Positions 1 through 15,734 of a stretch of DNA of 64,000 nucleotides are shown here, piece by piece. Positions within the stretch are counted from its first letter, which is position 1. Every line of letters starts with the position of its first letter. The position numbers and the translations under genes are program-made. Under the pieces are notes generated by a model. It was not told the DNA's origin, ran no database searches, and was given only the letters and a program-made list of their open reading frames with translations. Location of the stretch: the NCBI GenBank assembly GCA_965228735.1, contig OZ245838.1:6624001-6688000 (forward strand). Reading direction: 5' to 3'. The DNA is from Planctomycetota bacterium (GTDB lineage Bacteria > Planctomycetota > UBA1135 > UBA2386).

Positions 1-675
1 TCGCCCGCCAAGGTCGAGTCGCTCGAGTCCTACACCTCACTCATTCCGTACACCGACGCGGACGGCAACGCACAGCTGTTGCTCGCGGGCGGCGACGTGC
101 TCACCGGCCACGACCCGAAGACGGGCGCGGAGCTCTGGCGCTGGGGGACCTGGAACGAAGGTCACCGCGAACGCTTCTGGCGGCTCGTGCCGAGCGTCGT
201 CACGGGGTCCGGCATGGCCCTGGTCTGCGCGCCGAAGCGCGCGCCGGTCTACGCCATCCAGCTCGGCGGGAAGGGCGAGCTGCCGAAGGAAGCGTGCGCG
301 TGGCAGAGCGAGGGCCGGCCGAACCCGGTCTCGAGCGATGTGCCGACGCCCGCGTTCGAGGGCGGCGCGTTCTACGTGCTCTCCGACGTGCGCGCGGCGC
401 TGTCGAAGGTCGACGCCAGGACCGGCAAGGTGCAGTGGACGACGAACCTGCCGAAGGAGCACCTCTGGCGCGGTTCGCCGACGGTCGCGGATGGCAAGGT
501 CTACTGCATGAACCACAACGGCCTCGTCGTCGTCGCCGACTGCGACACCGGCGAGATCGCGCACCAGGTCGCGATGGGCGACGAAGGCGACGACCACACG
601 CGCAGCACGATCGTCGCCGCGCACGGCGCGCTGTTCATCCGCACGAACGGCGCGCTCTACTGCCTCGCGCGGTAA
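1..675 (+). CDS. PQQ-like beta-propeller repeat protein (BamB-like), 5'-truncated by window edge
   Basis: Open frame from window start; repeats such as GHDPKTGAELWRW, KVDARTGKVQW and GSPTVADGKVY are typical of PQQ-type propellers. Confidence 0.85.
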   Translation, partial: SPAKVESLESYTSLIPYTDADGNAQLLLAGGDVLTGHDPKTGAELWRWGTWNEGHRERFWRLVPSVVTGSGMALVCAPKRAPVYAIQLGGKGELPKEACAWQSEGRPNPVSSDVPTPAFEGGAFYVLSDVRAALSKVDARTGKVQWTTNLPKEHLWRGSPTVADGKVYCMNHNGLVVVADCDTGEIAHQVAMGDEGDDHTRSTIVAAHGALFIRTNGALYCLAR

Positions 676-692
676 CGAACGTCGGGTAACCG

Positions 693-1217
693 TTACCGCG
701 CTTCGGTCGCGCCCTGCAGCACCCGCCGGGCGCGCGCGAGGCGGGAGCGGACCGTGCCGATCGGGACGCCGAGCGCGATCGCGATCTCCTCGTAGCTCTT
801 GCCGGACGACTCGAACAGGTGCAGCACCTCGCGCTGCTCCGGCGTCAACGACTCGCGCGCGGCGGCGAGGGCCTCGCCGAGCTCGTGCGCGACCGCGACG
901 TGGATCGGGTTGTCGCACTCGTCGTGCAGCTTGCAGTGCGACGACGCCACGTGCTCGTGGTGGCGCCGGCGGCGAACGGTCCGACGCAGGTGGCGGCTGC
1001 GGTGCACGACGGCAGCCGCGAGCCAGTAGCGCGGGTCCGCGGGCGGTTCGGGCTGCGAGACCAGCGCGAGCAACGCCTCTTGCAGCGCGTCCTGGGCGAG
1101 GTGGTCGCAACCGAGGAAGCGTCGCGCGATGCGCAGCAGCCGACGCAGGTCGGCGTCGGAGAGATCGGGAAAGTCAGGTTCACCGCGAAGCGGCGCGGCG
1201 AGTGTGGAAACCGACAT
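693..1217 (-). CDS. ECF-type RNA polymerase sigma factor with His/Cys-rich linker
   Basis: Region 2 (LAQDALQEALL, YWLAAAVVHR) and region 4 (SYEEIAIALGVPIGTVRSRLARAR) motifs; 174 aa. Confidence 0.9.
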   Translation of the reverse strand: MSVSTLAAPLRGEPDFPDLSDADLRRLLRIARRFLGCDHLAQDALQEALLALVSQPEPPADPRYWLAAAVVHRSRHLRRTVRRRRHHEHVASSHCKLHDECDNPIHVAVAHELGEALAAARESLTPEQREVLHLFESSGKSYEEIAIALGVPIGTVRSRLARARRVLQGATEAR

Positions 1218-1301
1218 GCGGTCACCCGTGGGGATTCAGTGCAGCGGGAACGGCCGGTGCGCCGCAGGCGTGCGGACGCAGTCAGCGCTCGAAGCGAGAA
1301 C

Positions 1302-1784
1302 TCAGGCTTCGGCTGCCGCCGGGGGCGCGCGCGATGGTGGGATCCGGACCGGTCGCGCCCGGGTCTGCGAGGTCACGTCGACGCGGTCGTGGTCGAGCGC
1401 TCCGCGGGCGAGCTGCCAGTCGACGCTCGGCGCGAAGCCGCATGGCGTGCCCATCTCGAGCTCGCATGCGAAGCACACGTGGCCGCACTCGGTGCCGTCC
1501 TCGACGCTATCCGTGCCGCTCGGCACTTCACGTTCAGCTGGCCCGTGATCGAGGCCGCAGCTGCACTGGTGGACCGGTGCCCCAGTAGCGCTCGAAGCCG
1601 CGATCGAACCCGCAGTCGAATCCGCAGTCGAATCCGCTGGGGCGTGGCCGTGATCGTGCCCGCAGGCGTGGGTATGCAGGCCCGGCAGCGCGATTCGCAA
1701 TGCGATCGCGAGCAACGCCAGCCCCACGAACAGCCGGGCGAAGCGGCGCTCGAGGCGGTGGGGGTTGCGGGTCGGGTTGGCCAC
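1302..1784 (-). CDS. Exported His/Cys-rich leader protein with CxxC and C-terminal RAPP motif (DUF2946/CruR-like)
   Basis: RR plus hydrophobic N-terminus, HTHACGHDHGH, CGHVCFAC, ends PPSRAPPAAAEA; GTG start. Confidence 0.7.
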   Translation of the reverse strand: MANPTRNPHRLERRFARLFVGLALLAIALRIALPGLHTHACGHDHGHAPADSTADSTAGSIAASSATGAPVHQCSCGLDHGPAEREVPSGTDSVEDGTECGHVCFACELEMGTPCGFAPSVDWQLARGALDHDRVDVTSQTRARPVRIPPSRAPPAAAEA

Positions 1785-1879
1785 GGGGGCAAGGAGGTTA
1801 CGACCGCCGACCCGGCTTGGGAAGGGGTGGAATGGCCTTCAGGCCCACAGCACCGGCCCGCGACCGGCTTCGATTTCGT

Positions 1880-1904
1880 GGAACTCGCGAGTCGCAGCGG
1901 CACT
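1880..1904 (+). promoter_or_regulatory. Putative ECF promoter upstream of secretin
   Basis: GGAACTC-N12-GGCACT, ending 8 nt before GTG at 1913; motif repeated at 3988-4013. Confidence 0.55.
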
Positions 1905-1912
1905 CCGGCCGC

Positions 1913-3934
1913 GTGACGGTGTCCCCTTGCTTTCGTTCGCGGTTCTCGCGTTTCCTGCGCTCCGGGGCCGCGATCCTCGGCGCTGCGGCCGTCTTCGGCG
2001 GGCCGATCGTCGGGTTCTCGGGCGCTGCCGTCGCTCAGGGCGAGACTCCTCCCGAACCGCGCATCGTGACGCTCGGCACCCACCAACGGCTGCCGTTCGA
2101 CCGCGACGTCGAGCGCCTGGCCGTCGGCAGCGACACGGTGCTCACGGTCGACCTCATCAACACCCGCGAGGCGCTCGTGCTCGGCGGCTGCATGGGCACG
2201 ACGACCGTCCTCGTCTGGTACACCGACGGCACCTACGAGTCGCTCCTGTTCCGCGTGCAGCGCGACCTGTCCGTGCTGCAGCGCGCCCTGCGTGACATCT
2301 CACCGGGTGTCGTGGTCGAGATGGCCTCGGATCGGAACGCGCTGGTCGTGCGCGGTGTCGTGCCCGATGAACTGCGCCGTCAGGCCGTGCTGCGCGCCGC
2401 CGACAACTACCTCGCGGCCGGTGCGCCGCTCGACGTCGCGGTCGGTGCGCGCGACGCGTCGACGGCCGCGACGGAGCCGGCCGAGGTCCAGCTGTCGGAT
2501 CCGAGTCGCGAACCGGCGTCCCAAGTCATCGACCTGCTGCGTCTCGCCGAACTGCCGACGACCCTCGAGGACCGCATCCTCGAGGCGATCCGACCGATCG
2601 CCGGTCCCGACGTGCAGGTGCGCCGCCTGCAGCGCAACCCGCTGCGCGACGACGAAGAAGACGTGCTCGTGCTCGAGGGGTCCGTGCCGGACCAGATCGC
2701 GCTCGTGCGCGCGATGCAGCTCGCGGCGCAGCTGTTCCTCGGCGATTCCAACGCGGCGAGCGCGAACCGGAACGCGATCCAGGTGCTCGCCGACGAAGCG
2801 GGCGGCTTGCTCGGGCAGCGCGGCAACCTCGGCGGTGGCCAGGGCGCCGGTCAGGGCGGCCAGGGCGGTGGCTTCGGCGGCGGCGGGCAGGGCGCGGGTG
2901 GCTTCGCCGGTGGCGGCGGCGTCAACGTGCAGCGCAACGAGATCCAGCGCAACCTCGGCCGCGCGACCATGCTGTCGATGGCGCGCGGTCGGATCCTGTC
3001 GTTCGTCGAGGTGCGCGATCGGCCGCAGGTGCGGGTCGCGGTGCAGTTCTTCGAGATCGATCGCGATCGCCTGTTCCAGTTCTCGTCCGAGATCCAGGGG
3101 CTCGTCTCGGACTTCGACCAACCGCCGCTCGTGCCGGCCGACGTCGCTGGTCGCATCCAGCCGACGCCCGCGAACGTCGGCGCGTTCTCCGACAGCGACG
3201 TGCAGGCCGGCCTCGCGTCACTGACGCGGGGCTTCAGTCAGCAGATCCAGGTGAGCGGCCGGCGCTTCGCGCTCGACACGCTGCTGCAGGCGCTCGAGGC
3301 CCGCGGGATCGCGCGGCGACTTTCGGGTCCCGTGGCGACGGTGCTGAACGGTGAGACCGCGCAGTTCCAGGTCGGCGGCGAGATCCCGGTGCCGCAGGCG
3401 TTCACGCCCGCGGCCGGCGCGAACGCCGGGCTCGGCACCTTCGCCTCCGTCGACTTCCGCGCGTTCGGCGTCGGGCTCGGCATCCGCCCGCTGGTCGGGG
3501 CCGACGACGACGTGACCCTCGACCTGAGCTCGATCGTGTCGCAGCCGGATCAGATCCTGACGACGGTCGTGCGCGACGCGACGGGCACCGACCCGCAGAC
3601 GACGGCGTTCTCGACGCGCGCGCTGCGCACCAACGCGCGCCTGCAGGACGGTCAGAGCCTGCTCATCGGCGGGCTCGTCTCACGCTCGCAGCAGAGCGAC
3701 GTGTCGAAGACGCCGATCCTCGGCGACCTGCCGCTGCTCGGCTGGTTGTTCCGCTCGACGAACGACACCTACGGTCAGTCGGAGCTGTTCGTGCTCGTGA
3801 GCCCGAGCGTCGTGCGGCCGCCCGTGCCGGGCAGTGATCTGTGGCTGCACCCCGGGCTCGGCGAGACGCTGGCGGGGTGTCTGCCGAAGCGGCCTGCCGC
3901 CGCCGAATCGGGCGACACATCCGGCGAGGAGTGA
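1913..3934 (+). CDS. cpaC: Tad pilus secretin (CpaC/RcpA family)
   Basis: Signal peptide, pilus N-domain (GTTTVLVW), secretin motifs LNGETAQFQVGGEIPVP and KTPILGDLPLLGWLFRS; start GTG 1913 or 1919 uncertain. Confidence 0.9.
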   Translation: MTVSPCFRSRFSRFLRSGAAILGAAAVFGGPIVGFSGAAVAQGETPPEPRIVTLGTHQRLPFDRDVERLAVGSDTVLTVDLINTREALVLGGCMGTTTVLVWYTDGTYESLLFRVQRDLSVLQRALRDISPGVVVEMASDRNALVVRGVVPDELRRQAVLRAADNYLAAGAPLDVAVGARDASTAATEPAEVQLSDPSREPASQVIDLLRLAELPTTLEDRILEAIRPIAGPDVQVRRLQRNPLRDDEEDVLVLEGSVPDQIALVRAMQLAAQLFLGDSNAASANRNAIQVLADEAGGLLGQRGNLGGGQGAGQGGQGGGFGGGGQGAGGFAGGGGVNVQRNEIQRNLGRATMLSMARGRILSFVEVRDRPQVRVAVQFFEIDRDRLFQFSSEIQGLVSDFDQPPLVPADVAGRIQPTPANVGAFSDSDVQAGLASLTRGFSQQIQVSGRRFALDTLLQALEARGIARRLSGPVATVLNGETAQFQVGGEIPVPQAFTPAAGANAGLGTFASVDFRAFGVGLGIRPLVGADDDVTLDLSSIVSQPDQILTTVVRDATGTDPQTTAFSTRALRTNARLQDGQSLLIGGLVSRSQQSDVSKTPILGDLPLLGWLFRSTNDTYGQSELFVLVSPSVVRPPVPGSDLWLHPGLGETLAGCLPKRPAAAESGDTSGEE

Positions 3935-3987
3935 TGCGGTTACGGCGAGCCAGCACGGTCGTCGGACCACGTTTTTCGCGCGATTCG

Positions 3988-4013
3988 GGAACTCCCGTAC
4001 CCGCACCGGCACT
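3988..4013 (+). promoter_or_regulatory. Putative ECF promoter upstream of Flp pilin
   Basis: GGAACTC-N13-GGCACT, second copy of the motif at 1880-1904. Confidence 0.55.
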
Positions 4014-4079
4014 AGCCCCGTGACGCGGGTGTTCGCGTCCCCGGTTTCCCAACGCCTCCCCGTCAGAACAACGACTCCA

Positions 4080-4442
4080 ATGATCAAGCTCCTGCAGAAC
4101 AAGAAGGGCTCCGCCCTCGTCGAATACGGCCTCCTGGTCGCCGGCGTCGCGCTCGTCAGCGCCGTCTCCGTGTCGATCTTCGGCCACAAGACCAACGACC
4201 TCCTGGCCGCGACCGCGACGATCCTGCCGGGCGCGCACGACGACGACAACGGCCCGATCGTCAGCGCCAAGCTGATCGAGACGACCCGCGACCCGAACAA
4301 CAACGACGCGATCATCCTCGATCCGGCCGCTGCGGCGACCGAAGCGCCGCGCCTCGGCAACAACCTGCTCGGCGCGAGTTTCAACGCCCCGGGCGGCTCG
4401 GGCAACGTGCTCGGCTCGACGCTCGTCATCGAGGCGAACTGA
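4080..4442 (+). CDS. flp: Flp family pilin with C-terminal extension
   Basis: MIKLLQNKKG/SALVEYGLL: Gly cleavage site and EY Flp motif followed by a hydrophobic helix; 120 aa. Confidence 0.9.
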   Translation: MIKLLQNKKGSALVEYGLLVAGVALVSAVSVSIFGHKTNDLLAATATILPGAHDDDNGPIVSAKLIETTRDPNNNDAIILDPAAAATEAPRLGNNLLGASFNAPGGSGNVLGSTLVIEAN

Positions 4443-4455
4443 GCCGTCGGGTTCG

Positions 4456-4488
4456 GACCACGACCGCGCTGTCCCGCGTGTCGTGGTC
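4456..4488 (+). terminator. Hairpin downstream of pilin (attenuator or mRNA stabiliser)
   Basis: gaccacgac/gtcgtggtc stem extended by cgcg/cgcg; no U-tract. Confidence 0.35.
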
Positions 4489-4598
4489 GTCGAACTCGTC
4501 GACTGCTCGCGCGATCGCGGTCACCTCGATGCGGGGTGCCCGCGTTCGTGCGTTACGGGCGATCCCCGTGATTGCCGTCCCCAGCTGACCGACTCCCC

Positions 4599-5072
4599 AT
4601 GACTCCGCCGCTCGGACCGAACCTGGCCGCCTTCGCGCTGCTGCTGGTCGCGGTCTGGACCGACCTGCGCGGGCGGACGATCCCGGACACGATTCCGATC
4701 GCGATGGTCGTGCTGGCTCTTCTCGCGACCGCCTTCGGCTGGCACGCGGTGAGCTTCGCCGGACTCGGACTCGGCCTCGCCATCGGGTTCGGGCTCGGGG
4801 CGCTGTTGTTCTACGGCGGCGCGATGGGTGGGGGTGACGCCAAGCTGTGCGCCGGGCTCGGCGCGTTCTGCGGCTGGTCGCGGCTGCTCGAGGTGCTCTT
4901 CGCGACGGCGCTGTGCGGTGGGGTGCTCGCATACTGGGCGAAGCGTCGCGGTCAGCGCAGCCTGCCGTACGCGCCGGCGTTCGCCGCCGGCTATGCCGTC
5001 ACGGTCGCCATCGCGTGGACCCTGCCGCCGACCGGCGGCCTGTGGGAGCTGATCACCGGGAGGTCGACGTGA
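4599..5072 (+). CDS. cpaA: Prepilin peptidase (A24 family, CpaA/TadV)
   Basis: TDLRGRTIPD and MGGGDAKL aspartic peptidase motifs, multi-TM. Confidence 0.9.
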   Translation: MTPPLGPNLAAFALLLVAVWTDLRGRTIPDTIPIAMVVLALLATAFGWHAVSFAGLGLGLAIGFGLGALLFYGGAMGGGDAKLCAGLGAFCGWSRLLEVLFATALCGGVLAYWAKRRGQRSLPYAPAFAAGYAVTVAIAWTLPPTGGLWELITGRST

Positions 5073-5959
5073 TCGGTGCCGCGCGTCGTGTTGCGCGCGC
5101 TGCCGAACGCGGCGCCATCATGGTCGAGTTCGCGCTCGTTGCGCTCGTGCTCTACTTCCTGCTCGGTGCGCTGCTGTCGTTCGGCACGATGATCCAGAGC
5201 GCGCAGGTCGCGCAGGACGTCGCGCGACTCGGCGCGCGTGAGCTCGCGCTCACGGCGTTGCCCGCCGAGCTGACGTTCGAGGAAGCGCTCGATGCGACGC
5301 GCGATCGCGTGTTCGACCCGAACCGGCTCGTCGTCGATCTCGAAGTGCTCGCGGACCAGGGCATCGAGATCGAGGACTACTTCGCGACGCTGCCGTTGGT
5401 GAACCGCGCGCTGCGGCCGGTCTTCGTCTACGACGTCGTCGCTGGCCGCCGGCTGCTGCGCTTCCCCGGTGCGGTGCTCCAGTCGCCGGAGCCGACGGTG
5501 TTCAACGCCGGCCTGACGGTCGGCGTGCCGCTCGTCGTGCAGCGGGGCGCGGACGGCGAGACGATCCGCTGGCTGCCGATCGTCGAGGAGGTGCGGCCCG
5601 ATCCCGCCGATCCCGCAACGGGTTCGTTCTCCGCTGCGGCCACCGGCAGCGACCGCGCGTTCGTCGCGCTCCGCATCAACATTCCCGCGACGGCCGCGGC
5701 CCTCGCCGAGTACGACGGTCCGAGCACGTGGCCGCCGGCAACCAACGCGGGCCAGCCGCACGAGGTCGGGCCGGTGACCGCGCTCGCCGGGTCCGTGCCG
5801 CCGTACGGGACGCCTTTTGCCGGCGCCGTCAGCGAAGGGCCCGGCGCCATCGGCGGCGAGCAGGGGCTCGGCGAACTGGGCGCGCTCGGCACGCCCGTGC
5901 GCCCGTTCCGCCGCGTGTTCCTCGGCCAGGCGTTCTTCCGCCGCGAGGTCTTCCAATAA
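5069..5959 (+). CDS. tadE: TadE-like pseudopilin
   Basis: RG/AIMVEFALV and AQDVARLGARE motifs; GTGA overlap with cpaA. Confidence 0.8.
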   Translation: MIGAARRVARAAERGAIMVEFALVALVLYFLLGALLSFGTMIQSAQVAQDVARLGARELALTALPAELTFEEALDATRDRVFDPNRLVVDLEVLADQGIEIEDYFATLPLVNRALRPVFVYDVVAGRRLLRFPGAVLQSPEPTVFNAGLTVGVPLVVQRGADGETIRWLPIVEEVRPDPADPATGSFSAAATGSDRAFVALRINIPATAAALAEYDGPSTWPPATNAGQPHEVGPVTALAGSVPPYGTPFAGAVSEGPGAIGGEQGLGELGALGTPVRPFRRVFLGQAFFRREVFQ

Positions 5960-5999
5960 CCGCCGCCGCCTCCTCCTCCCGACTCCAGCGATCGACATC

Positions 6000-7076
6000 A
6001 TGGCTTCCCGTCACCGTCCTGTTTCTCCGCGCACCCGGCCGCGACTGCGCTCGGCGTCGTGGTTGCTCGTGCCGATCGGCGGCTTCGCGCTGCTCCTGCT
6101 CGGCCTGATCGTCTACGTCACGGTCGTCGGCGAACTGCGGTTGCCGTTCGGCGACGGCGTCGTGTTCGCGTTCGGCAAGGAGGAGCAGAACGAAGCGAGC
6201 GCGAACGTGCGCACCCTGCCCGAGGGCACGGTCGGAGTGTTCGCGTGCCCGCGTAAGCTGCCCGCGTTCACGAAGATCACGCGCGATCACCTGCTCACCG
6301 CCGACGGGTTCCACACCGTTCCCGTCGTCGAGTCGGCCATCGAAGCCAACGGTCTGTTCGCGACCGACGTCGACGGTTTGAAGCGACTGCTCGGCCGCGT
6401 GCTGCGGCGCGAGAAGCCGGTCAACTTCGCGTTCAGCGAGGGCGACTTCCTGCCGGTCGGGACCAAGGCCGGACCGAGCGCCGGCATCCCGCCCGGCATG
6501 CGCGGCGTCTGGATCGACGTCGCGACGGTCCCTGGCCTCGCAAGTGCCTCGGCGGGGGATCGCATCGATCTCGTGGCGGCTTCGCAGGCGGCCGATCGTC
6601 CGCCCGCTGACCCGGGGCTGCTCGGCAACGTCGCCGACCCCGTGATGCGGGCGCGCGTGCAGATGCTGGCGACGCAGCCGCGCACTGGTGGCGATACGCG
6701 GTCCTGGGTCGTCGCGCGTCATGCGCTCGTCGTGCAGTCGATGCGACCGCGGCCGTCGAGCGTCGCGCCGAAGCCGGCGGCGGCCAACAGCAAGGGGGTC
6801 GAAGAGGTGTTCGTCGCGATGCAGCCGCAGGAGGTCGCGAAGTTCAGCCAGGCGATGGCCGAGGGTGCGACCCTCGTCGTGGCGCCGCGTTCGGGCCAGC
6901 CGGAGAACGAAGCCGTGGACGAGATCGAGGACGTCGTGCCGCCCGACCCGAGCGCGGCGCTGCGGGAGTTGCTCGTCGGCTCCTCCGGGACCCCGGCGAG
7001 CCTCGGCGTCGTCGAGGTCATCCGCGGTGAGTCGCGCGCGTCGGTGACCGTGCCGCGGGGGCAGGGGGGGCGTTGA
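6000..7076 (+). CDS. cpaB: Flp pilus assembly protein CpaB/RcpC-like
   Basis: One TM, SAF-like region, GIPPGMRGVWI and GDRIDLV motifs. Confidence 0.75.
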   Translation: MASRHRPVSPRTRPRLRSASWLLVPIGGFALLLLGLIVYVTVVGELRLPFGDGVVFAFGKEEQNEASANVRTLPEGTVGVFACPRKLPAFTKITRDHLLTADGFHTVPVVESAIEANGLFATDVDGLKRLLGRVLRREKPVNFAFSEGDFLPVGTKAGPSAGIPPGMRGVWIDVATVPGLASASAGDRIDLVAASQAADRPPADPGLLGNVADPVMRARVQMLATQPRTGGDTRSWVVARHALVVQSMRPRPSSVAPKPAAANSKGVEEVFVAMQPQEVAKFSQAMAEGATLVVAPRSGQPENEAVDEIEDVVPPDPSAALRELLVGSSGTPASLGVVEVIRGESRASVTVPRGQGGR

Positions 7077-8371
7077 GCCGACGGGACGTGAAGCCAACCG
7101 GCGGTGCCGAGGAACGCGAACGGGGTGCGGTGCTCGTGCTCTTCGCGCTGCTGCTCGTCGGCATGTTCGGAATGCTCGCGGTGCTCGTCGACGGCGGGCG
7201 CCTGCGCGTGACCCGGCAGCAGATGGATGCCGGCGTCGAGCACGCCGCGCTCGAGGGTGTGCGCTTCAAGGACAGCGAGGGCGACGCGGGGCGTCGCCTG
7301 CGCGCTCGCATCGCGATGGCGCGGCAGTTTGACGACGATTTCGTCCTCGAGAACGGCGATCGCATCGGCTTAGGGGCCGGCACGGTAGCGATCGTCACGC
7401 CGGGTGCGCAGGCGCCGCTCGGTGGCCGTCTCGATGTGCCGTTGGCTCCGGTCGCGCGTTACTGGAAGCCCGATCCGGATCCAGCGAACCCTGAACCGCC
7501 TGACCCTGAGTCGGTCTTGCAGGACAACCTGGCCAACGCGACTCACGGAGACTTCGTTGCCGGCACCCACGATCCGGGTGCGGGAGAACCGATCGAGGAC
7601 GATCTGTTCCAGCGCAACGACTTCGTGGCAACGACGTTCGGCAGCTCGACCGCGGAACTGGCCGCGGCCCCAGCGTTCCTTGCACGCCTGCGACGCGCCA
7701 ACGGGCGGCTCGCGCTCGACCGCCAGCTCGGAGTGAGTTCGGCTGGTCCGCCGTTCGAGTATCTGTGGGCGCGCGGTAGTGCGTGGCGCGAACCGGGGCT
7801 GGGCGAGACCAACGCGAGTCGAGCGGATGGCCTCACCGTGCGCGCCGCGGCGATCGCGAGCACGGAACGTGCCCTCGTCGTCACGGCTTTGCCCGGCAGC
7901 GGCCTCGCGATGGCGCCGTTCGCGCTCAGGGCCGAGCCTGCCTCCAGCTGGTCGGGCACCCTCGTCGGTGACTCGCTGGTCGTGACCGTCGACTCGATCG
8001 GCACGTTGACGCTCGGCGGGCAGGAGGAGGGCGCCGTGTTCTTCGCGGCAGGCTTCGCACCTGTGGTCGGGCTCACAATCGCCCCGAGGCCGGGTGACGT
8101 TCCCTCGATGCCAGCTGGCCAGTTGATCGTACCGGTGTACGGGATCGTGGGCACGATCCGGCGCATCGCCGGATTCACTCTCGCCACTGCGACGCTTGTC
8201 GGTGACGAGTTGACCGTGATCCGAGTGCCTGGCGGCGTGCTGCCGGCCGGCGCTTCGGCCATCGCACCGGCAGCTCTCGACGCGCGCGTGGAGCTGGGGC
8301 GCGACCCGGCGCTGCGCGCGCTCCACCAGTCGTTTCCATTCCCCGTTCTCGCACCAGCTCTCCGCCGCTAG
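7073..8371 (+). CDS. tadG: TadG-like pilus tip/pseudopilin protein
   Basis: ERG/AVLVLFALL...AVLVDGG...QQMDAGVEHAALEG Tad N-terminal motif. Confidence 0.75.
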   Translation: MSRRDVKPTGGAEERERGAVLVLFALLLVGMFGMLAVLVDGGRLRVTRQQMDAGVEHAALEGVRFKDSEGDAGRRLRARIAMARQFDDDFVLENGDRIGLGAGTVAIVTPGAQAPLGGRLDVPLAPVARYWKPDPDPANPEPPDPESVLQDNLANATHGDFVAGTHDPGAGEPIEDDLFQRNDFVATTFGSSTAELAAAPAFLARLRRANGRLALDRQLGVSSAGPPFEYLWARGSAWREPGLGETNASRADGLTVRAAAIASTERALVVTALPGSGLAMAPFALRAEPASSWSGTLVGDSLVVTVDSIGTLTLGGQEEGAVFFAAGFAPVVGLTIAPRPGDVPSMPAGQLIVPVYGIVGTIRRIAGFTLATATLVGDELTVIRVPGGVLPAGASAIAPAALDARVELGRDPALRALHQSFPFPVLAPALRR

Positions 8372-8373
8372 CG

Positions 8374-9555
8374 ATGTCCCGTCCAGTTCCAATGCTGTGG
8401 ATCGGCGACGATCCTGACCTTTCGACCGAGGTCGAAGCCGCGATCAGCGGGCTCTCCGATGTTCGCGTGCTGCCGCGCTTCGCGGACGACACCCGCGTCG
8501 GTCTGCGGCTCGCTCGCAGTCAGCAACCCGAAGTGATCGGGCTCGCGAACCTGCCGGCCGTCGGTGGGCTCGACGCGACGGTCGAAGAGCTGCGGCTGGC
8601 GGTGCCGGGTGCTGCGATCGTCGCGTTGCTCGATTCGCGGCGATTCGACAGCGGCGATGCCGAGAGTGCATTCCTCGTCGAGGCCACGCGCGCCGGTCTG
8701 CGCGACTTCCTGCGGCGGCCGTTGTCGTCGGCCGAGCTCGCGGCCTGCCTGCGGCGGCTCACCGCGGGGGCGGGGCGCGCGCAGTCGGGTGAGCAGGGGA
8801 CGGTGACCTGCTTCACGAGCAACAAGGGCGGTGTCGGCAAGACGACGCTCGCGGTGAACGTGGCGGCCGAGCTCGCGCAGCGCGAACCCGGCAGCGTGCT
8901 GCTCGTCGATGCGGCGCTGCAGCTGGGCCTCTGCGCGACGATGCTCGATCTCGAGCCGGCCGTGACGATGCGCGACGTCGTCGATCAGATCGACCGGCTC
9001 GACGGGACGCTGCTGCGCGAGATGGCCGAGACGCACGAGTGCGGTCTCGACCTGCTCGCGGCGCCGGGTGATGCCGTCGAAGCTGCCGACGTCTCCGAGG
9101 AACACCTGTCTCGCATCCTCGCCGTCGCGCGTGCGACCTACGATCATGTGATCGTCGACACGTTCCCGATGCTCGACGGCATCGCCATCGCCACGTTCGA
9201 CCGCGCCGACACGGTGTGGCAGGTCGTCGCGCCGACGGTGCCGACGGTGCTCGGCGCCGAACGGTTGATCGGCCTGCTCGAAGGAGTCGGCGTCGAACCG
9301 GCGCGCCAGCGCATCGTGGTGAACACCTCGGTGCCGTCGCACGCCGGCCAGCTCTCCGCGCGCGATGTCGCGACCCGACTCGGGCGTGACGTCGATATCG
9401 TGATCCCGTTCTCCCGAGCGGCCGTGGCCTCGTGCAACAGCGGCCGGCCCGTGGTGCTGGCGAGCGCGCGCTGGAGCGGTTTCCGCCGACGGGTTCGCGA
9501 GCTCGCGGACCTCCTCGAGCAACCGAACCGCGCCGCGCTGGAGGCCGTCGAGTGA
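8374..9555 (+). CDS. cpaE: CpaE/TadZ pilus assembly protein (receiver-like plus MinD-type ATPase)
   Basis: KGGVGKTT deviant Walker A, N-terminal receiver-like region (AGLRDFLRRP). Confidence 0.88.
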   Translation: MSRPVPMLWIGDDPDLSTEVEAAISGLSDVRVLPRFADDTRVGLRLARSQQPEVIGLANLPAVGGLDATVEELRLAVPGAAIVALLDSRRFDSGDAESAFLVEATRAGLRDFLRRPLSSAELAACLRRLTAGAGRAQSGEQGTVTCFTSNKGGVGKTTLAVNVAAELAQREPGSVLLVDAALQLGLCATMLDLEPAVTMRDVVDQIDRLDGTLLREMAETHECGLDLLAAPGDAVEAADVSEEHLSRILAVARATYDHVIVDTFPMLDGIAIATFDRADTVWQVVAPTVPTVLGAERLIGLLEGVGVEPARQRIVVNTSVPSHAGQLSARDVATRLGRDVDIVIPFSRAAVASCNSGRPVVLASARWSGFRRRVRELADLLEQPNRAALEAVE

Positions 9556-11093
9556 CCGAGCCGCCGCCGATGCCGGACCCCGCGACTCCGGGTTCCGCGG
9601 GCGATTCGGGCACGAGCCGGAAGCGCGTCGATCGGGCGCTGTTCCGCGGTTCGCGGGCGGCCGACATGACGGCGCGCATCCGCGCGGCCAAAGGCTCGGG
9701 CGCCGCGCGTGCCGAAGCGACGCCGCGTCCGGCCGCTCGCCCCGAACGCCCCGCCACCGACTACGCGTCGGTCAAGGGCGAGCTGCAATCGCGCCTGCTC
9801 GAAGAACTGTCCGACCGCGAACTGCTCGGGGCGGACGAGGCCCGCATCGGCGCGTTCGTTCGCGAGTTCGCCAACCAGGTGCTGTCCGAAGAGGACGTGC
9901 CGCTCAACGAACGCGAACGCGAGCAGCTCGGGCGCGACCTGCTCCAGGAAACGCTCGGGCTCGGACCGCTCGCGCCGCTCGTGCTCGACCCGGCGGTGAC
10001 CGACGTGCTCGTCAACGGGCCGAACGACGTGTTCGTGGAGCGGCATGGGCGCTTGGAGCGCAGCGACGTGCGCTTCCGGGATGCCGAGCACCTACTGCGC
10101 GTGATCGAGCGCATCGCCGCGCGCGTCGGCCGCCGCATCGATCAGTCGGCGCCGATGGCGGACCTGCGGCTGCCCGACGGCAGCCGCGTGAACGCGACGA
10201 TTCCGCCGGTCTCCATCGACTACCCGACCCTGTCGATCCGCCGCTTCGGGCACCGCCGGCTGCGCAGTTCGGACCTTCTGCGCTACGGCTCGCTGAGCGA
10301 TCCGATGCTCGCGTTCCTGCAGGCCGCCGTCCGCTGCCGCATCAACATGGTGATTTCCGGCGGCACGGGCGCCGGCAAGTCGACGTTGCTCGGCGCGCTC
10401 GCCGAGGCGATCCCGTCCACCGAGCGGATCGTCACGATCGAGGACACGGCCGAACTGCTCCTCGATCAGCCGCACGTGGTGCGGCTCGAGAGTCGCCCGA
10501 CGAACTCCGAGGGCGCCGGCGAGATCACGATCCGACAGCTGGTGATCAACTCGCTTCGGATGCGGCCGGATCGCATCCTCGTCGGTGAGGTTCGCAGCGG
10601 CGAAGCGCTGGACATGCTGCAGGCCATGAACACCGGGCACGACGGCAGTCTCACGACGGTGCACGCGAACTCGCCGCGCGACGCGTTGAGCCGCCTCGAG
10701 ACCATGGTGCTCATGGCGGGCACGGAGTTGCCGTCGCGCGCGATTCGCGAACAGGTCAGCTCGGCCGTGCAGCTGCTCGTGCACGTCAGTCGCGGCGAGG
10801 ACGGCGTGCGGCGGATCGAGAGCATCAGCGAGATGACCGGCCTCGAGGGCGACACGCCGTTGCTGCAGGAGATCTTCCGCTGGCGGCGATCGGGTCGCGG
10901 CGAACGCCGCATCGAGGGCCGATTCGAGCCGACGGGCATCACGCCGCGCATCGCCGACCGGCTGCGGAAACGGGGCGCCGACGTGCCGCAGCAGTGGTTC
11001 CACGGCGCCGGCGCGGCGAGCCTGCACGGTGGCGGGGCCGACGCAACGCGCGAGGCCGACGGCGGCCATGCGGATCCGCGGGGGCGGTCGTGA
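9552..11093 (+). CDS. cpaF: Tad secretion ATPase CpaF/TadA
   Basis: [47 protein letters not shown]. Confidence 0.95.
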
Positions 11094-11857
11094 GCAGCAC
11101 CGCGATGGGGCAGCGGCCGATCGCGCGCGCTGCTCCCGAACCCGTGCGCGTCGGTCACGACGCGGCCCGCGGTCGCCTCTGGGTCGGCATCGTCGTCGGC
11201 ACGATCGTGGCGCTTCTGGTCGCTCTGCTGTGGGACCAGATCGAGGTCGCGATCGCGTTCGGCGCGCTGACCGGGGTCTTGGCGTGGATCGTGGACGGGT
11301 GGTCGGTGGCGTCTCGCACGATCCGGGTCGAGACCCAGCTGGCCGATGCGCTCGACCTGCTCGGCTCGAGTGTGGCCGCCGGCGTCGGCCTCGTGGAGGC
11401 AATGCAGGGCGTGGTGCGGGACGTGCGGCAGCCGTTGCGGGGCGTGCTGGCCGCGGCGGCCGAGCGGTTGCGCCTCGGCGATGACCCGCAGCGCGTGTTC
11501 GAGGAGGCGCAACGGGCGCTGCCGCTGTCGGCGTTTCGGCTGCTCACGCATTACCTCAGCGTCCAGTGGCAGAGCGGCGGCGCGATGGCGCCGGGCCTGC
11601 ACGCGATCGCCGAGACGGTGCGCGACCGCGTCAACCTCGCGCGGCGCATCCACAGTCAGAGCGCCGAGGCCCGCTTCTCCGTGCTCGGGATCCTCGCCGT
11701 CGTCTACTTCATCGCGATCCTCGCCTGGACCAACAGCCCCGAGCGCGTCGAGGACTTCGTGTTGTCCGAGATCGGTGGCGGCATCGTCGCCGGTTGTGTG
11801 TTCCTGCAGGCCGTCGGCCTCGTCTGGATGGCGCGGTTGACGCGGATCGAGCTGTGA
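11090..11857 (+). CDS. tadB: TadB inner membrane platform protein
   Basis: T2SSF-like: [30 protein letters not shown] overlap. Confidence 0.88.
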
Positions 11858-12771
11858 CCTCTACCGTCGTCATCGCGATTGCTTCCGCGCTGGCGATCGC
11901 GTTGCTCGTAGCCTGGCTGCGGCAGCGTTCGATCCGGCTCGCGGCGCAGGAACGGCTGGCCTCGAGCTCGCTGAGTGGAGTGGCGTCCCGCCCCGTCGCC
12001 GTTTCGGGTGTGCCTGACGATGCGGTTGCGCGGTGGCTCTTCCTCGCGGGAGAACGCGGCCCCGGCGCGGTCGGTCGCTTCTGGTGGTCGACGACCGTGT
12101 TCGGTCTGGTGGGCCTGGTCCTCGGGCTGGTCGCGCTCGCGTCCGGGCTGCTGGGGCTCGTGAACGACGCGCTCGTCGGGATCCCGGGCCGCGTCGGCTA
12201 CCTGTTCGTGCCGATCGTGTTCCTCGTGCCCGTGCTGCTGCCGCTCACGTTCGCGGCGTGGCCGACGGCGCGGATCCGCCGGCGACGCCGAGCGCGGGTG
12301 CAGCTGCTGCTGCGCGATCTGTATCCCGTGCTCGAGCTGTTCGCGAGCCTCGCGCAGGCCGGGTTGGCGTTCGACGCCGCGCTGGCGCGCGTCTTGTCGA
12401 CGCTCGGTCCGGAGCAGCCACTCGGACGCGAACTGCTGACGTTCCAGGCGGAGGTCATGGGCGGCGCTGATCGCCCGGAGTGCTTCCGGCGGCTCGCGCG
12501 ACGGGTCGCGTTGCCGCAGATGAGCAGCTTCTGTTCGGCTCTGATCCGGGCGCACGAGGTCGGCATCGGCCTCGCGACCACGCTGCGGCGGCAGGCGGAC
12601 GACCTGCGCAGCGAACTTCGCGAACGGGCGCTCGCGCGCGCCCAGTCGCTGCCGGCGCGCCTCGTGTTCCCGCTGGTCCTGTGTTTCCTGCCGGGCATCT
12701 TCGTGATGAGCCTCGGTCCGGCGTTCTATGGCTTCCTCGTCGGTACTACCGGCTTCGGCGTTTCTCGATGA
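11854..12771 (+). CDS. tadC: TadC inner membrane platform protein
   Basis: [31 protein letters not shown] overlap. Confidence 0.88.
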
Positions 12772-13454
12772 CTCTGTCTCGCGTACTTCCACTCTCCTCG
12801 TTCGCCGTCGCGCTCGCATTGACGTCGTGCGCCGTCTGGGATCCCGACTACGAGCCCGATCCCGACGTCGTTCTGCGTGACCTCGTGGACGGCCTCGACG
12901 ATCGCAGCGAGCCGCTGAACCCGGTCGAGCGGCAGCGCCTGCAGCACGCGATCGAACGCCTCGCCACGCGGCATCCGACCCACGTGCCGAGTCAGGTCGC
13001 GGCGGGCGCGTGCGCGATCGGCGCGGGCGAACCGCAGCGGGCGCAGGGCTACGTCGATCGCGCGCTGTCGCTCGAGCCGCGGCACGTCGAGGCGCGGGCG
13101 TTGCGCGTGCGCATCGCGGTCGCGGACGGCAGTCTCGATCTCGCGCGGCGCCTCGTCGACGACGGCCTGCGCCTGCGCCCGGACGCCGCCAGGCTGCACG
13201 AGTCCTCGGCCTGGCTACATCAGCTCGAGCAGCGCTGGGACGATGCGTTGGCCGCCCTCGACACCGCGGCCGAGCTCGACGCCCCGGCCTGGCGACTCGC
13301 GTTCCACCGCGGCCTCATCGAAGAACAACGCGGCAACCCCGAAGCGGCGGAGACCCACTTCCGCGCCGCGCTCGACGCGAACGAGAACTGCACGCCGGCA
13401 GCCCAACGCCTGAAGGCGCTCGTCGCCCAGCGCAAGATCGCCGAACGCCGGTGA
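12768..13454 (+). CDS. TPR lipoprotein (TadD-like pilotin)
   Basis: Lipobox LTSC, TPR-like helical repeats, last gene of the tad operon. Confidence 0.75.
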   Translation: MTLSRVLPLSSFAVALALTSCAVWDPDYEPDPDVVLRDLVDGLDDRSEPLNPVERQRLQHAIERLATRHPTHVPSQVAAGACAIGAGEPQRAQGYVDRALSLEPRHVEARALRVRIAVADGSLDLARRLVDDGLRLRPDAARLHESSAWLHQLEQRWDDALAALDTAAELDAPAWRLAFHRGLIEEQRGNPEAAETHFRAALDANENCTPAAQRLKALVAQRKIAERR

Positions 13455-13456
13455 TG

Positions 13457-13527
13457 CCCGTACGGTACCTGGTTCAAACCGCAAGGCTGCGCGGCAGCCT
13501 TGCGGTTTGAACCAGGTATCGTACGGG
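13457..13527. repeat. REP-like inverted repeat (family A)
   Basis: 34-bp arms cccgtacggtacctggttcaaaccgcaaggctgc with one mismatch and a 3-nt loop, between convergent genes. Confidence 0.85.
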
Positions 13528-13529
13528 TG

Positions 13530-15734
13530 TCAGAAGACCAGGCGGCCCGTTACGCCCCAGGTCTGGGGGGTGCCGTTCTGGCCGACGAACTGGGTCGGGT
13601 CGGCCGGGTTGGCCTGGAACGCGATCGGCACGTACTCCTCGTCGAACGCGTTGTGCAGGAAGACGGCGAGGTCCCAGCCGACGTTGCCCACCTCGCCATT
13701 GGCACCGAGGCGGAAGTTGACGAGGTCGAACTCGTCGGCGCCGAGGTTGCCGGCGTCGTAGTAGAACTCGCCGGTGTGGAACCAGTCGGCGCGCGCGTAT
13801 GCGGCGACGTCGTCCGTCAGCTGCTGCATGTATTGACCGCCGAGGCTCGAGGTGAACTCGGGCGCGAACGGCAGGTCGTTGCCCGCGACGTTCTGGCCGA
13901 AGGAGTCGGTGAACGCGTCGAACTCGGTGTCGAGGAAGCCGGCGCTGCCGAAGACGGTGAAGCCGTCACACACCACGGCGCTGACCTCGAGCTCGACGCC
14001 GCGGCTCGTCGACTCGCCCGCGTTCGTGACATAGCCACCGGCGGTCGCGTCGAACTGGCTGAGCTGCATGTCCTGCCAGTCGATCCAGAAGAGCGCGACG
14101 TTGGCCTGGATGCGCTCGTCGTACCAGTCCGTCTTGGCGCCGATCTCGTAGGTCCAGCTCGTCTCGGTCGAGAACGACTCGTTGCCGGACGGCGCGGTGA
14201 GGTTGAATCCGCCGGCCTTGAAGCCGCGCGAGGCCGACGCGTAGGCCGTGACGCGATCGCAGACGTCCCAGCCGAGGCTCGCGCGCGGCAGGATGCGTTC
14301 GAACGCGCGGTCCTGATCCGTCGCGCTGACCGGCACGGTGAAGCCGCCGGACTGGAACACGCGCGTGATCCGCGCGTCGACCTCTTCGTAGTCGTAGCGC
14401 AGCGCGATCGTCGCTTCGAAGCGGTCGCCGAACGGCACGGCGAGCTGCCCGAACGCGCTGATCGCGAGGTTCTCGAAGTTGCCGCTCGCGTCGTCCTGGC
14501 CGACGTTCGTCACCGGGAACAGGATGCCGGCACCGCCGGGACGGAAGTCGTTGATGGCCGAACGCGTCGCGTCGCTGCGGAAGCCGCTCATGCCGACGAG
14601 CCAACGCGGGCCGGTCGCCGAGTCGGACGACTCGAAGCGGATCTCCTGGTAGATGTAGTCCTGCTTCTCGTTCGTGAAGCGGCGCACGCCGTCGAGCTGC
14701 GAGAAGTCGAAGTCGGCCGACTCGTCGATGTCCCAGCCCTGCGCCGAGGTGATCGACTTGAAGTCGAACTGCTCGCCGTAGTAGTCCCACACGACCGACG
14801 CGGACAGGATGTCGCGATCCGTCTCGCCGACGAAGTCCTGCGCGATCCGATACGGGTTGTTGCGCAGGCCGGAGGGGCCGCCGAGCGGCGCCAGGACGAA
14901 GCCACCGTCGCGCGTCTCCTCGCCGTGCAGAACCACGCGCACGACGGACGAGTCGCCGGCGTTCCACAGCAGCTGCGCCCGGCCGAACGCGCTGTCGCGC
15001 GAGTCGACGTCGCTGTTGGTCACCGTGTTGGTCGTGTAGCCGTCGCGCTTCTCGTAGGAGCCGCTGAAGCTGAAAGCGAGCTCGTCCTCGATGATCGGGC
15101 CGGTCGCGGTGACCTCGTGATACTGGCTGTCGTAGTTGCCGAGCGTCGTCCGGAAGTCGGCGCCGTAGTCGAACCGCGGTTGCTTCGTGATCAGGTTGAT
15201 CGCACCGCCGACCGTGTTCCGACCCCAGAGCGCGCTGTTCGGCCCGCGCATGATCTCGACGCGGTCGAGCCCGGCGAACGACAGGTTGGTGTTGCTCGTG
15301 CTGAGCTGCGGCACGTCGTCGACGAACGTCGCGACGGCCGGATCGCCCTCACCCGAGCCGACGCCACGGATGTAAGGAAAGCTCAGGCGCCGGGCCGAGA
15401 AGCCCGTGACGAACGTGTTGGGCACGTAGCGCGCGGCCTCGTCGATCGCGCGAATGCCGGCCTGCCGGATCGTCTCGGCCGAGATCGGCGTGATGCTCAT
15501 CGGCACGTCCTTGACGTTCTCATCGCCCCACTTCTGGGCGCTCACGACGATCGGCTCGGTCGTGCGGCGCGGTTCCTGACCGTCACCTGCCCCGGCACTC
15601 GGAGTGCCGGACGGGATCGGTGCATTCACCTTCGCCGGCGGATCCTGCGGCGGGTCCTGGGCGACGACGAGATCGGTGAGGGCGAGAGCGGCGGCGAGGC
15701 AGCCGCTCGTCGTGGCGAGGGAGGTGTGCGTCAC
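13530..15734 (-). CDS. TonB-dependent outer membrane receptor
   Basis: Signal peptide, TonB-box-like EPIVVSA, plug motif DRVEIMRGPNSALWGRNTVGGAINLIT, terminal Phe; GTG start inferred (ATG 15833 alternative). Confidence 0.93.
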   Translation of the reverse strand: MTHTSLATTSGCLAAALALTDLVVAQDPPQDPPAKVNAPIPSGTPSAGAGDGQEPRRTTEPIVVSAQKWGDENVKDVPMSITPISAETIRQAGIRAIDEAARYVPNTFVTGFSARRLSFPYIRGVGSGEGDPAVATFVDDVPQLSTSNTNLSFAGLDRVEIMRGPNSALWGRNTVGGAINLITKQPRFDYGADFRTTLGNYDSQYHEVTATGPIIEDELAFSFSGSYEKRDGYTTNTVTNSDVDSRDSAFGRAQLLWNAGDSSVVRVVLHGEETRDGGFVLAPLGGPSGLRNNPYRIAQDFVGETDRDILSASVVWDYYGEQFDFKSITSAQGWDIDESADFDFSQLDGVRRFTNEKQDYIYQEIRFESSDSATGPRWLVGMSGFRSDATRSAINDFRPGGAGILFPVTNVGQDDASGNFENLAISAFGQLAVPFGDRFEATIALRYDYEEVDARITRVFQSGGFTVPVSATDQDRAFERILPRASLGWDVCDRVTAYASASRGFKAGGFNLTAPSGNESFSTETSWTYEIGAKTDWYDERIQANVALFWIDWQDMQLSQFDATAGGYVTNAGESTSRGVELEVSAVVCDGFTVFGSAGFLDTEFDAFTDSFGQNVAGNDLPFAPEFTSSLGGQYMQQLTDDVAAYARADWFHTGEFYYDAGNLGADEFDLVNFRLGANGEVGNVGWDLAVFLHNAFDEEYVPIAFQANPADPTQFVGQNGTPQTWGVTGRLVF

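Follow-up and report, generated by a model that had tools for sequence, protein, structure and literature searches.

The closest described relatives of the element considered here are the DUF2946-type leader peptides CruR (Bp2923, Bordetella pertussis) and CutF (Rhodobacter capsulatus). In CruR, 45 residues separate a CxxC motif from a RAPP motif, a distance kept within 1-2 residues across the family, and ribosome stalling without copper permits downstream transcription, while copper relieves the stall (PMC9426467). In CutF the sign is reversed (bioRxiv 2025.02.05.636593). The element in question is a leader of this kind that precedes the gene of an extracytoplasmic function (ECF) sigma factor and lies divergent from a Tad pilus operon, in a 64,000-nt stretch of a Planctomycetota bacterium genome (GCA_965228735.1, contig OZ245838.1, positions 6,624,001 to 6,688,000; hereafter the window). 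As in CruR and CutF, it is the first gene of its unit and has an export signal, a CxxC, about 45 residues, a RAPP and a long gap behind it. Unlike them, it precedes a sigma factor gene where theirs is a transporter or oxidase gene, its context is zinc and not copper, and the matches to the DUF2946 profile are weak only. If the leader gates the sigma factor, one stall would therefore govern a whole regulon in trans. We hypothesize, with a probability of roughly 0.55, that the locus is a zinc-starvation relay that switches on the Tad pilus together with distant zinc-starvation genes. The genes and signals at the centre of the locus are as follows, with positions in the window and gene identities based on tblastn and Pfam labels.

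1302-1784, minus strand: CruR/DUF2946-like leader (upstream ORF) with hydrophobic export segment, His/Cys region, CxxC, 44-aa spacer and RAPP
1464-1475, minus strand: leader CxxC (CFAC), read from the sequence
1320-1331, minus strand: leader RAPP, read from the sequence, followed by 5 residues and the stop
693-1217, minus strand: ECF sigma factor (Pfam Sigma70_r2 and r4_2) with C37-D-H39 and the His/Cys linker HHEHVASSHCKLHDECDNPIH
1795-1823, minus strand: putative housekeeping promoter of the leader, TTCCCA-17-TAACCT, 10 nt before its GTG, read from the sequence
1880-1904, plus strand: predicted ECF promoter 1, GGAACTC-N11-CGGCACT, 8 nt before the secretin GTG; 31.6 bits, the top score genome-wide
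3988-4013, plus strand: predicted ECF promoter 2, GGAACTC-N12-CGGCACT, 66 nt before the pilin ATG; 23.5 bits, fifth genome-wide

An initial annotation of the window had described a RAPP-ending His/Cys leader and a His/Cys-linker ECF divergent from a Tad operon. This arrangement was found as claimed, and all the parts that it named are present by sequence reading and by Pfam and TIGRFAM profiles. The leader stop lies 84 nt from the ECF start, and the leader is the first gene of the unit, with the divergent promoter region upstream. The window genome (one contig, 7.19 Mb, 69% GC) holds 36 open reading frames (ORFs) with a CxxC and a RAPP-like end, and a RAPP near the end of shadow ORFs is common. 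Because such shadow ORFs are frequent at this GC content, the leader was established by conservation and not by the motif alone. A leader-type ORF precedes 23 of 48 orthologous ECF genes, a count that, like the ECF tree, excludes four ECF genomes (G071, G084, G103 and G106; G and L codes are the genome and locus labels of this analysis, G000 being the genome that carries the window). The spacer between CxxC and RAPP is 44-45 residues in 23/23, in a search that permitted spacers of 38-52, retained the value closest to 45 and missed variants such as RAPS (G013); this recurrence at the CruR spacing shows the leader to be real. Residues P34, H37, C104, C107, R152 and P154 are invariant among 20 aligned leaders with a mean identity of 28%, and the hydrophobic N-terminal segment LFVGLALLAIALRIALPGLH, as judged from sequence, is kept in the alignment. 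DUF2946 (PF11162) is matched weakly, at E<=1, by 13 of the 20 (best E 2.6e-4), and the leader of one relative scores 21.1 against the gathering cut-off of 23.7. We hold with high confidence that the leader is a CruR-type regulator, the ribosome stalling itself being predicted. Hexamers similar to its putative promoter stand before most of 21 leaders (by eye, unscored), and we infer that the leader transcript is leaderless. A rho gene is present in the window genome, and folding of the RNA between leader and ECF gave a hairpin near the ECF start (no control sequence was folded); the leader might act through termination or through this hairpin.

Variants of the leader were observed elsewhere. 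Those before the tad-linked ECFs at L263 (13711-14094), L265 (13990-14340), L267 (5205-5621) and L266 (upstream of 1078) end in APKxSPP or APKNSP and not in RAPP, and these endings may be another arrest motif that does the same job. At L259, RAPP/RGPP leaders at 7943 (+) and 1435 (-) have no ECF in view, and one of them stands directly before a pilin-first tad operon, beside a COG0523 gene. At L340 (9669-9965, minus strand), a CxxC-RAPP leader directly precedes a porin-ZnuA-ZnuC-ZnuB operon, which is the CruR-type layout on a zinc importer.

The second component, the ECF, was likewise confirmed, with sigma r2 and r4 domains and conserved His/Cys residues. It consists of sigma2 and sigma4 only, ending 8 residues past sigma4, and its structure model has a pLDDT of 88 and a pTM of 0.51. 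C37 and E88 are invariant, and H39, H87, C95, H98, C101, H106 and H111 are kept in at least 90%, of 43 homologues. A total of 131 close homologues, named Planctomycetota, were found, and orthologues occur in 51 of the 91 genomes of the family; of 80 loci retrieved by means of the ECF alignment, most held unrelated ECFs, and 5 were used. Metal-related ECFs comparable to the window protein include SigC (ECF36) and OrbS, the latter reportedly an ECF with an on-board iron sensor. SigC serves copper acquisition when the metal is limited (PMC8999054). CorE and CorE2 (ECF44 and ECF238) resemble the window ECF in having no adjacent anti-sigma gene and conserved metal ligands in the protein (PMC8999054). 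In contrast to them, the Cys-rich C-terminal extension and the CxC linker motif are absent from the window ECF and from the ECF alignment, the ligands are C-D-H at the sigma2.1/2.2 loop plus the His/Cys linker, the predicted regulon comprises uptake genes and Tad, and the protein is paired with an arrest leader. No anti-sigma gene was seen beside the ECF in the gene maps, nor any anti-sigma, kinase or transmembrane (TM)/WD40 extension typical of the planctomycetal groups (ECF46, 57-59, 61, 62, 213, 217, 226 etc.). Judged by the group descriptions compared from the ECF re-classification (PMC7826278 and its supplement), it is probably a distinct group, as it matches none of the planctomycete-containing ones among them. 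The ECF is usually followed by a permease, which is unlinked in the window genome:

L198:4023-5975 (minus strand), and G000:C1:1041956-1043776: permease of ~640 aa with ArsP_1 and a His-rich N-terminal membrane region

The initial annotation had also seen the same ECF-style motif before the secretin and the pilin, and both copies are borne out at 1880-1904 and 3988-4013. The motif defined here, GGAAC[TC]-N13-CGGCAC, is longer than the one then given. Its matrix was trained on 47 sites, all from other genomes, whose 26-nt geometry is constant in 47/47 and many of which end 8 nt before a start codon. The pattern GGAACTC-N11/12-CGGCACT has three copies in the 7.19 Mb genome, two of them at 1880 and 3988, and sites above 20 bits number 8 in that genome and 0 in its reversed sequence. 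Across 10 ECF genomes the exact pattern gave 98 matches against 27 for reversed-pattern controls, and across 5 ECF-less genomes 19 against 21. A pattern with an N12 spacer was dropped in favour of N13, as it matches coding ELWxTDGT repeats, and autoregulation of the ECF was rejected, since none of 48 loci has the motif within 900 nt on the strand of the ECF. The motif is likely the promoter that the window-type ECF would recognize.

The genes behind this motif indicate which signal is involved. The top five sites of the window genome lead the secretin, DUF1826-COG0523, a MerC-like gene, an unknown secreted-type protein and the pilin, and the COG0523 protein scores 589.9 bits with the ZigA model (cut-off 600). 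Other motif-led genes encode DUF1826, MerC-like and FKBP/SlyD-like proteins, a periplasmic binding protein and several unknowns; in G013 and G060, COG0523 and DUF1826 lie within the tad operon. In other genomes, what most commonly lies divergent from the ECF is an operon of an outer-membrane protein with ZnuA-ZnuC-ZnuB, led by the same motif, and the nearest Atlas clusters of its porin are auto-named 'zinc-regulated outer membrane receptor'. DUF1826 is found in yciC clusters under Zur control (PMC2770081). Because the motif leads porin-ZnuABC, COG0523, DUF1826 and MerC-like genes, the signal is probably zinc shortage and not copper, as regards both the metal and its sign. The suggestion of metal-responsive control thus stands for the metal-linked regulon, whereas the copper of CruR and CutF gives way to the zinc limitation that the motif-led genes indicate. 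The gene content matches that of Zur regulons (znuABC, yciC/COG0523, DUF1826, outer-membrane receptor), where control is by repression, whereas here an alternative sigma factor would exert positive control. The idea that the ECF substitutes for Fur/Zur is unsupported, as Fur-family genes (Fur and Zur not distinguished) are retained in 88/91 family genomes. The conserved core is the leader and the ECF; its usual cargo is porin-ZnuABC, and tad is one optional cargo.

Three further sites deserve mention. At G000:C1:5295945-5296410 (L338), a MerC-like gene behind a 26.5-bit ECF site is split in the assembly of the window genome, likely through a sequencing error, since contigs of four runs have one extra base at the break. 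At G000:C1:646936-651060 (L226), three ECF sites accompany divergent genes for an unknown secreted-type protein and a lipoprotein-like protein, followed by DUF1826-COG0523. From 1575 onward at L285, an ORF behind a 29-bit ECF site reads as a heavy-metal-associated-like domain; an in-frame TGA occupies the first Cys position of its metal motif, which makes it a possible selenoprotein.

The cargo in the window is a complete eleven-gene Tad set (1913-13454, plus strand), in which pilin, peptidase, secretin, TadA, TadB, TadC, TadZ, TadE/G and RcpC are co-located.

1913-3934, plus strand: RcpA/CpaC secretin (Pfam Secretin and T2SS-T3SS_pil_N)
4080-4442, plus strand: Flp-like pilin of 120 aa, with a G|SALVEY cleavage motif and a C-terminal extension; below the Pfam cut-off
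4599-5072, plus strand: TadV/CpaA prepilin peptidase (Pfam Peptidase_A24)
5069-5959, plus strand: TadE-like pseudopilin (Pfam TadE)
6000-7076, plus strand: RcpC/CpaB (Pfam RcpC E 1e-3, TIGR03177 E 4e-14, both below cut-off)
7073-8371, plus strand: TadG-like pseudopilin (Pfam Tad)
8374-9555, plus strand: TadZ/CpaE, receiver-like plus MinD/ParA ATPase (Pfam AAA_31, CbiA)
9552-11093, plus strand: TadA/CpaF ATPase (Pfam T2SSE, TIGR03819), start at 9552 or 9564
11105-11857, plus strand: TadB (Pfam T2SSF)
11854-12771, plus strand: TadC (Pfam T2SSF)
12768-13454, plus strand: TadD-like TPR lipoprotein, end of the cassette (Pfam TPR; lipobox-like LALTSC read from the sequence)

As in other Tad/Flp (type IVc) pili, all core genes stand in a single locus. 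The window type differs from typical ones in its 120-aa pilin with a conserved His/Asp-bearing extension, its large TadE/TadG, the separate pilin promoter, the orphan pilins beside COG0523 and the metal-starvation context. Pilin residues H36, H53, D55, D56, N57 and E67 are invariant across 32 homologues, and members of this pilin family are named from Rhodopirellula and Blastopirellula; the structure model (pLDDT 64) is confident in the N-terminal helix alone, and filament assembly is predicted from the genes. Orphan second pilins away from tad were observed at L223:7876-8259, L224:7316-7693, L225:8012-8200 and L222:8885-9151, three of the four directly preceding COG0523-like genes and two having their own ECF site. 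Among type IVa pilins, Legionella PilA2 is said to act in metal acquisition. The same role is described for the type IVa pilin PilA1 of Synechocystis (PMC5634550). Such pilin precedents are limited to type IVa, whereas the window pilus is type IVc.

The association between ECF and pilus extends beyond the window. The window-type pilin occurs in 10 of the 91 family genomes, and all 10 carry the ECF. The two are adjacent in 6 of the 10 and on different contigs in three; in G013, tad and ECF share a contig at a distance of 560 kb, and the pilin is nonetheless behind an ECF site. Upstream of the pilin, 10/10 tad genomes have a site that scores 16 bits or more, and 9/10 have one upstream of the secretin, the 99th percentile of 400 random upstream regions being 11.4 bits. 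The synteny check proposed with the initial annotation hence gave adjacency in 6/10 tad genomes, and ECF with promoter in 10/10. By promoter placement, tad is a regulon member and more than a mere neighbour of the ECF, which very likely drives it. The proposal that leader and ECF switch on the pilus is sustained by the leader, by the promoters before secretin and pilin and by the linkage kept in those six genomes; it is narrowed in that tad is only one of the cargoes.

The leader-ECF-tad block is no assembly artefact, since contigs of two other sequencing runs span window positions 1-13487 without gaps, with 0 and 33 differences. Four runs inspected for contig joints revealed no empty site, that is, none from which the block was absent. 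In G001, the genes flanking the block in the window are direct neighbours, the TonB receptor abutting an orthologue (71% identity) of the window gene 1-675, so the cassette lies between backbone genes. Six tad-linked ECFs form one supported clade (100/98) that spans four genera; together with the adjoining flanks in G001, this shows that leader, ECF and tad move as a cassette. A long inverted repeat at 13457-13527, REP-like or a terminator, lies where the TPR and TonB receptor genes converge; similar copies occur elsewhere in the genome, and contigs end at the repeat.

What the pilus may do is suggested by the cargo that it appears to replace. Among the 51 ECF genomes, which are related and mostly incomplete metagenome-assembled genomes (MAGs), the ECF-driven outer-membrane protein (porin) occurs in 0/10 with tad and 39/41 without. 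This exclusion is also seen within genera g1 and g12, and at least four tad/porin changes are forced on the ECF tree. MerC-like genes occur in 9/10 tad genomes and 7/41 ECF genomes without tad, and 6/10 tad genomes, including that of the window, have no ZnuA match. We propose the following course. The leader would be transcribed constitutively; at low zinc the ribosome would stall at its RAPP, and the downstream ECF would be made. The ECF would transcribe the secretin gene from one promoter and the pilin gene with the rest of tad from another, and would also activate the distant genes for the COG0523/ZigA-like chaperone, DUF1826 and the MerC-like membrane protein. Metal on the nascent CxxC would relieve the stall and turn the ECF off, following CruR logic. 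Metal on the ECF's own His/Cys residues may provide another way of turning it off, and the many leaderless ECF copies (25 of 48 loci have no detectable leader) would then be accounted for. The Tad machine and the MerC-like protein would take the place of the outer-membrane protein/ZnuABC route, which in relatives is driven by this ECF, and the pilus therefore likely serves zinc acquisition, directly or through adhesion. That the machine itself participates in uptake we find plausible and yet lean slightly against. The fullest version is tentative: Tad would be a zinc importer whose His/Asp pilin captures metal and whose filament draws it through the secretin, with import by the MerC-like protein in place of the receptor/ZnuABC, all under the control of an as yet undescribed ECF group for zinc starvation, itself gated by an arrest peptide that senses metal.

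Tad pili are known adhesins, and the same zinc relay could make an ordinary adhesin to metal-rich surfaces or particles, the tad/porin exclusion being a side effect of a few lineages having exchanged cassettes and lost genes. The conventional Tad gene set fits this, as does the six-ECF clade across four genera, by which part of the pattern is one mobile cassette. The sequencing runs that contain the locus include a coral metagenome (share 0.59), and none listed is an RNA data set. Phylum-wide, with the pilin family in 24 of 301 sampled genomes, strict exclusion had to be given up, the porin occurring in 3/24 tad genomes (one a weak partial match) and 82/277 others (p=0.10, not significant). 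On the other hand, G013, G053 and G060 keep the ECF at its ancestral site (beside permease/recC), where the porin is missing, with tad elsewhere; close g12 relatives without tad retain the porin; tad is accompanied by MerC-like genes and by additional orphan pilins next to COG0523; and the pilin has its invariant His/Asp residues. We regard an ordinary adhesin as unlikely.

Several observations besides that loss of significance weigh against the zinc-starvation relay or its pilus arm. The window copy of the leader has no DUF2946 match in the Pfam profile search, and the C>G skew expected of a Rho site is weak around the leader (58/50 and 32/24). Four of the 10 family tad genomes retain another ZnuA-family gene, the porin is also found in 23/40 ECF-less genomes, and Fisher p-values overstate the exclusion because the genomes are related and mostly incomplete MAGs. 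In G253, leader, ECF, tad and MerC stand alongside a porin-Znu operon. Beyond the family, 7 of 20 distant tad loci have no metal context, and the distant tad-linked ECFs lack the C-D-H motif. The other 13 of these loci have an ECF, leader, MerC, COG0523, Fur or ZIP gene within ~10 kb, in three regulator layouts. An ECF stands beside tad in 8/20, often with a His/Cys leader ending in RAPP or APKxSPP and the same promoter before the pilin; one has RAPP leaders with no ECF in view; and a Fur-family gene is present in 3/20, two of them with a ZIP transporter. MerC-like genes occur in 5/20 and COG0523 in 3/20. At L273 (9592 and 11301) and L275 (15564), loci with a Fur-family gene and a ZIP transporter, palindromes like TGCACA-N3-TGTGCA, noted by eye, precede the pilins and are candidate Zur-type operators; at L261 a different, Fur-box-like palindrome was noted in the same way between pilin and leader.

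The permease that usually follows the ECF also counts against zinc shortage. It best matches the 'SO_0444 Cu/Zn efflux transporter' model (201 bits, cut-off 300), and this resemblance to a Cu/Zn efflux family would fit metal excess better than shortage. It belongs to the case for a relay that answers another metal or an excess (copper, nickel/cobalt), in which CutF logic would apply and a metal-induced stall would turn on ECF and pilus as a stress response. CruR and CutF, the two DUF2946 leaders studied, are both copper sensors, of opposite sign; metal activates ECFs of the CorE type (PMC8999054); and SlyD-like and HMA-like genes stand behind some sites. Nevertheless, this is quite improbable: no copper chaperone, CopC, SCO or multicopper oxidase is among the annotated motif-led genes, the led genes are ZnuABC, ZigA-like COG0523 and DUF1826, and in G253 the permease itself closes the porin-Znu import operon. 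RAPP arrest peptides occur upstream of protein-localisation genes, and a SecM/Apd-type leader that monitors protein export or membrane insertion, with any metal sensing left to the ECF, would suit the 25 leaderless loci and the burden that secretin and pilus place on export, but is very improbable given the CxxC invariant at CruR spacing, the His-rich segment and the same leader type, found directly ahead of porin-ZnuABC in G218 and, in G357, ahead of COG0523-region genes and a pilin.

Downstream of the cassette, one neighbour had been counted by the initial annotation as a possible member of the system.

13530-15734, minus strand: TonB-dependent receptor, convergent with tad, followed by ybaB-recR; a neighbour outside the system

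The receptor closes the block before ybaB-recR as described, and the reported lack of a GGAAC..CACT motif upstream of it is correct, the best score there being -3.0 bits against a background median of -2.9. Its membership by adjacency was not borne out. None of 18 orthologues has an ECF promoter site, the window copy alone among them has a tad gene within 1.5 kb, and in G001 the receptor abuts the left-flank gene. It occurs in 18/91 genomes, mostly of genus g12, and three carriers have no ECF. Cell-surface signalling of the FecI-FecR-FecA type does not describe this locus, as no anti-sigma gene was seen and the receptor is unlinked elsewhere and without a site.

Every part of the zinc-starvation relay belongs to a known family. 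In line with the initial annotation, which knew of no equivalent, none was found in the literature outside subscription papers, bioRxiv supplements and the gene tables of the DUF2946 context surveys; within that scope, no Tad pilus in zinc homeostasis, no zinc-starvation regulon run by an ECF and no arrest peptide that gates a sigma factor are described. If true, the proposal would widen the range of DUF2946 leaders, so far tied to copper and to single operons, to zinc and to entire regulons. It would also give the metal-sensing ECFs a further class, one whose promoter is well defined. The unit of leader, ECF and promoter is of a size that suits a laboratory host, and it could act as an orthogonal zinc sensor. 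For the planctomycetes themselves, it would give their surface fibres a testable function.

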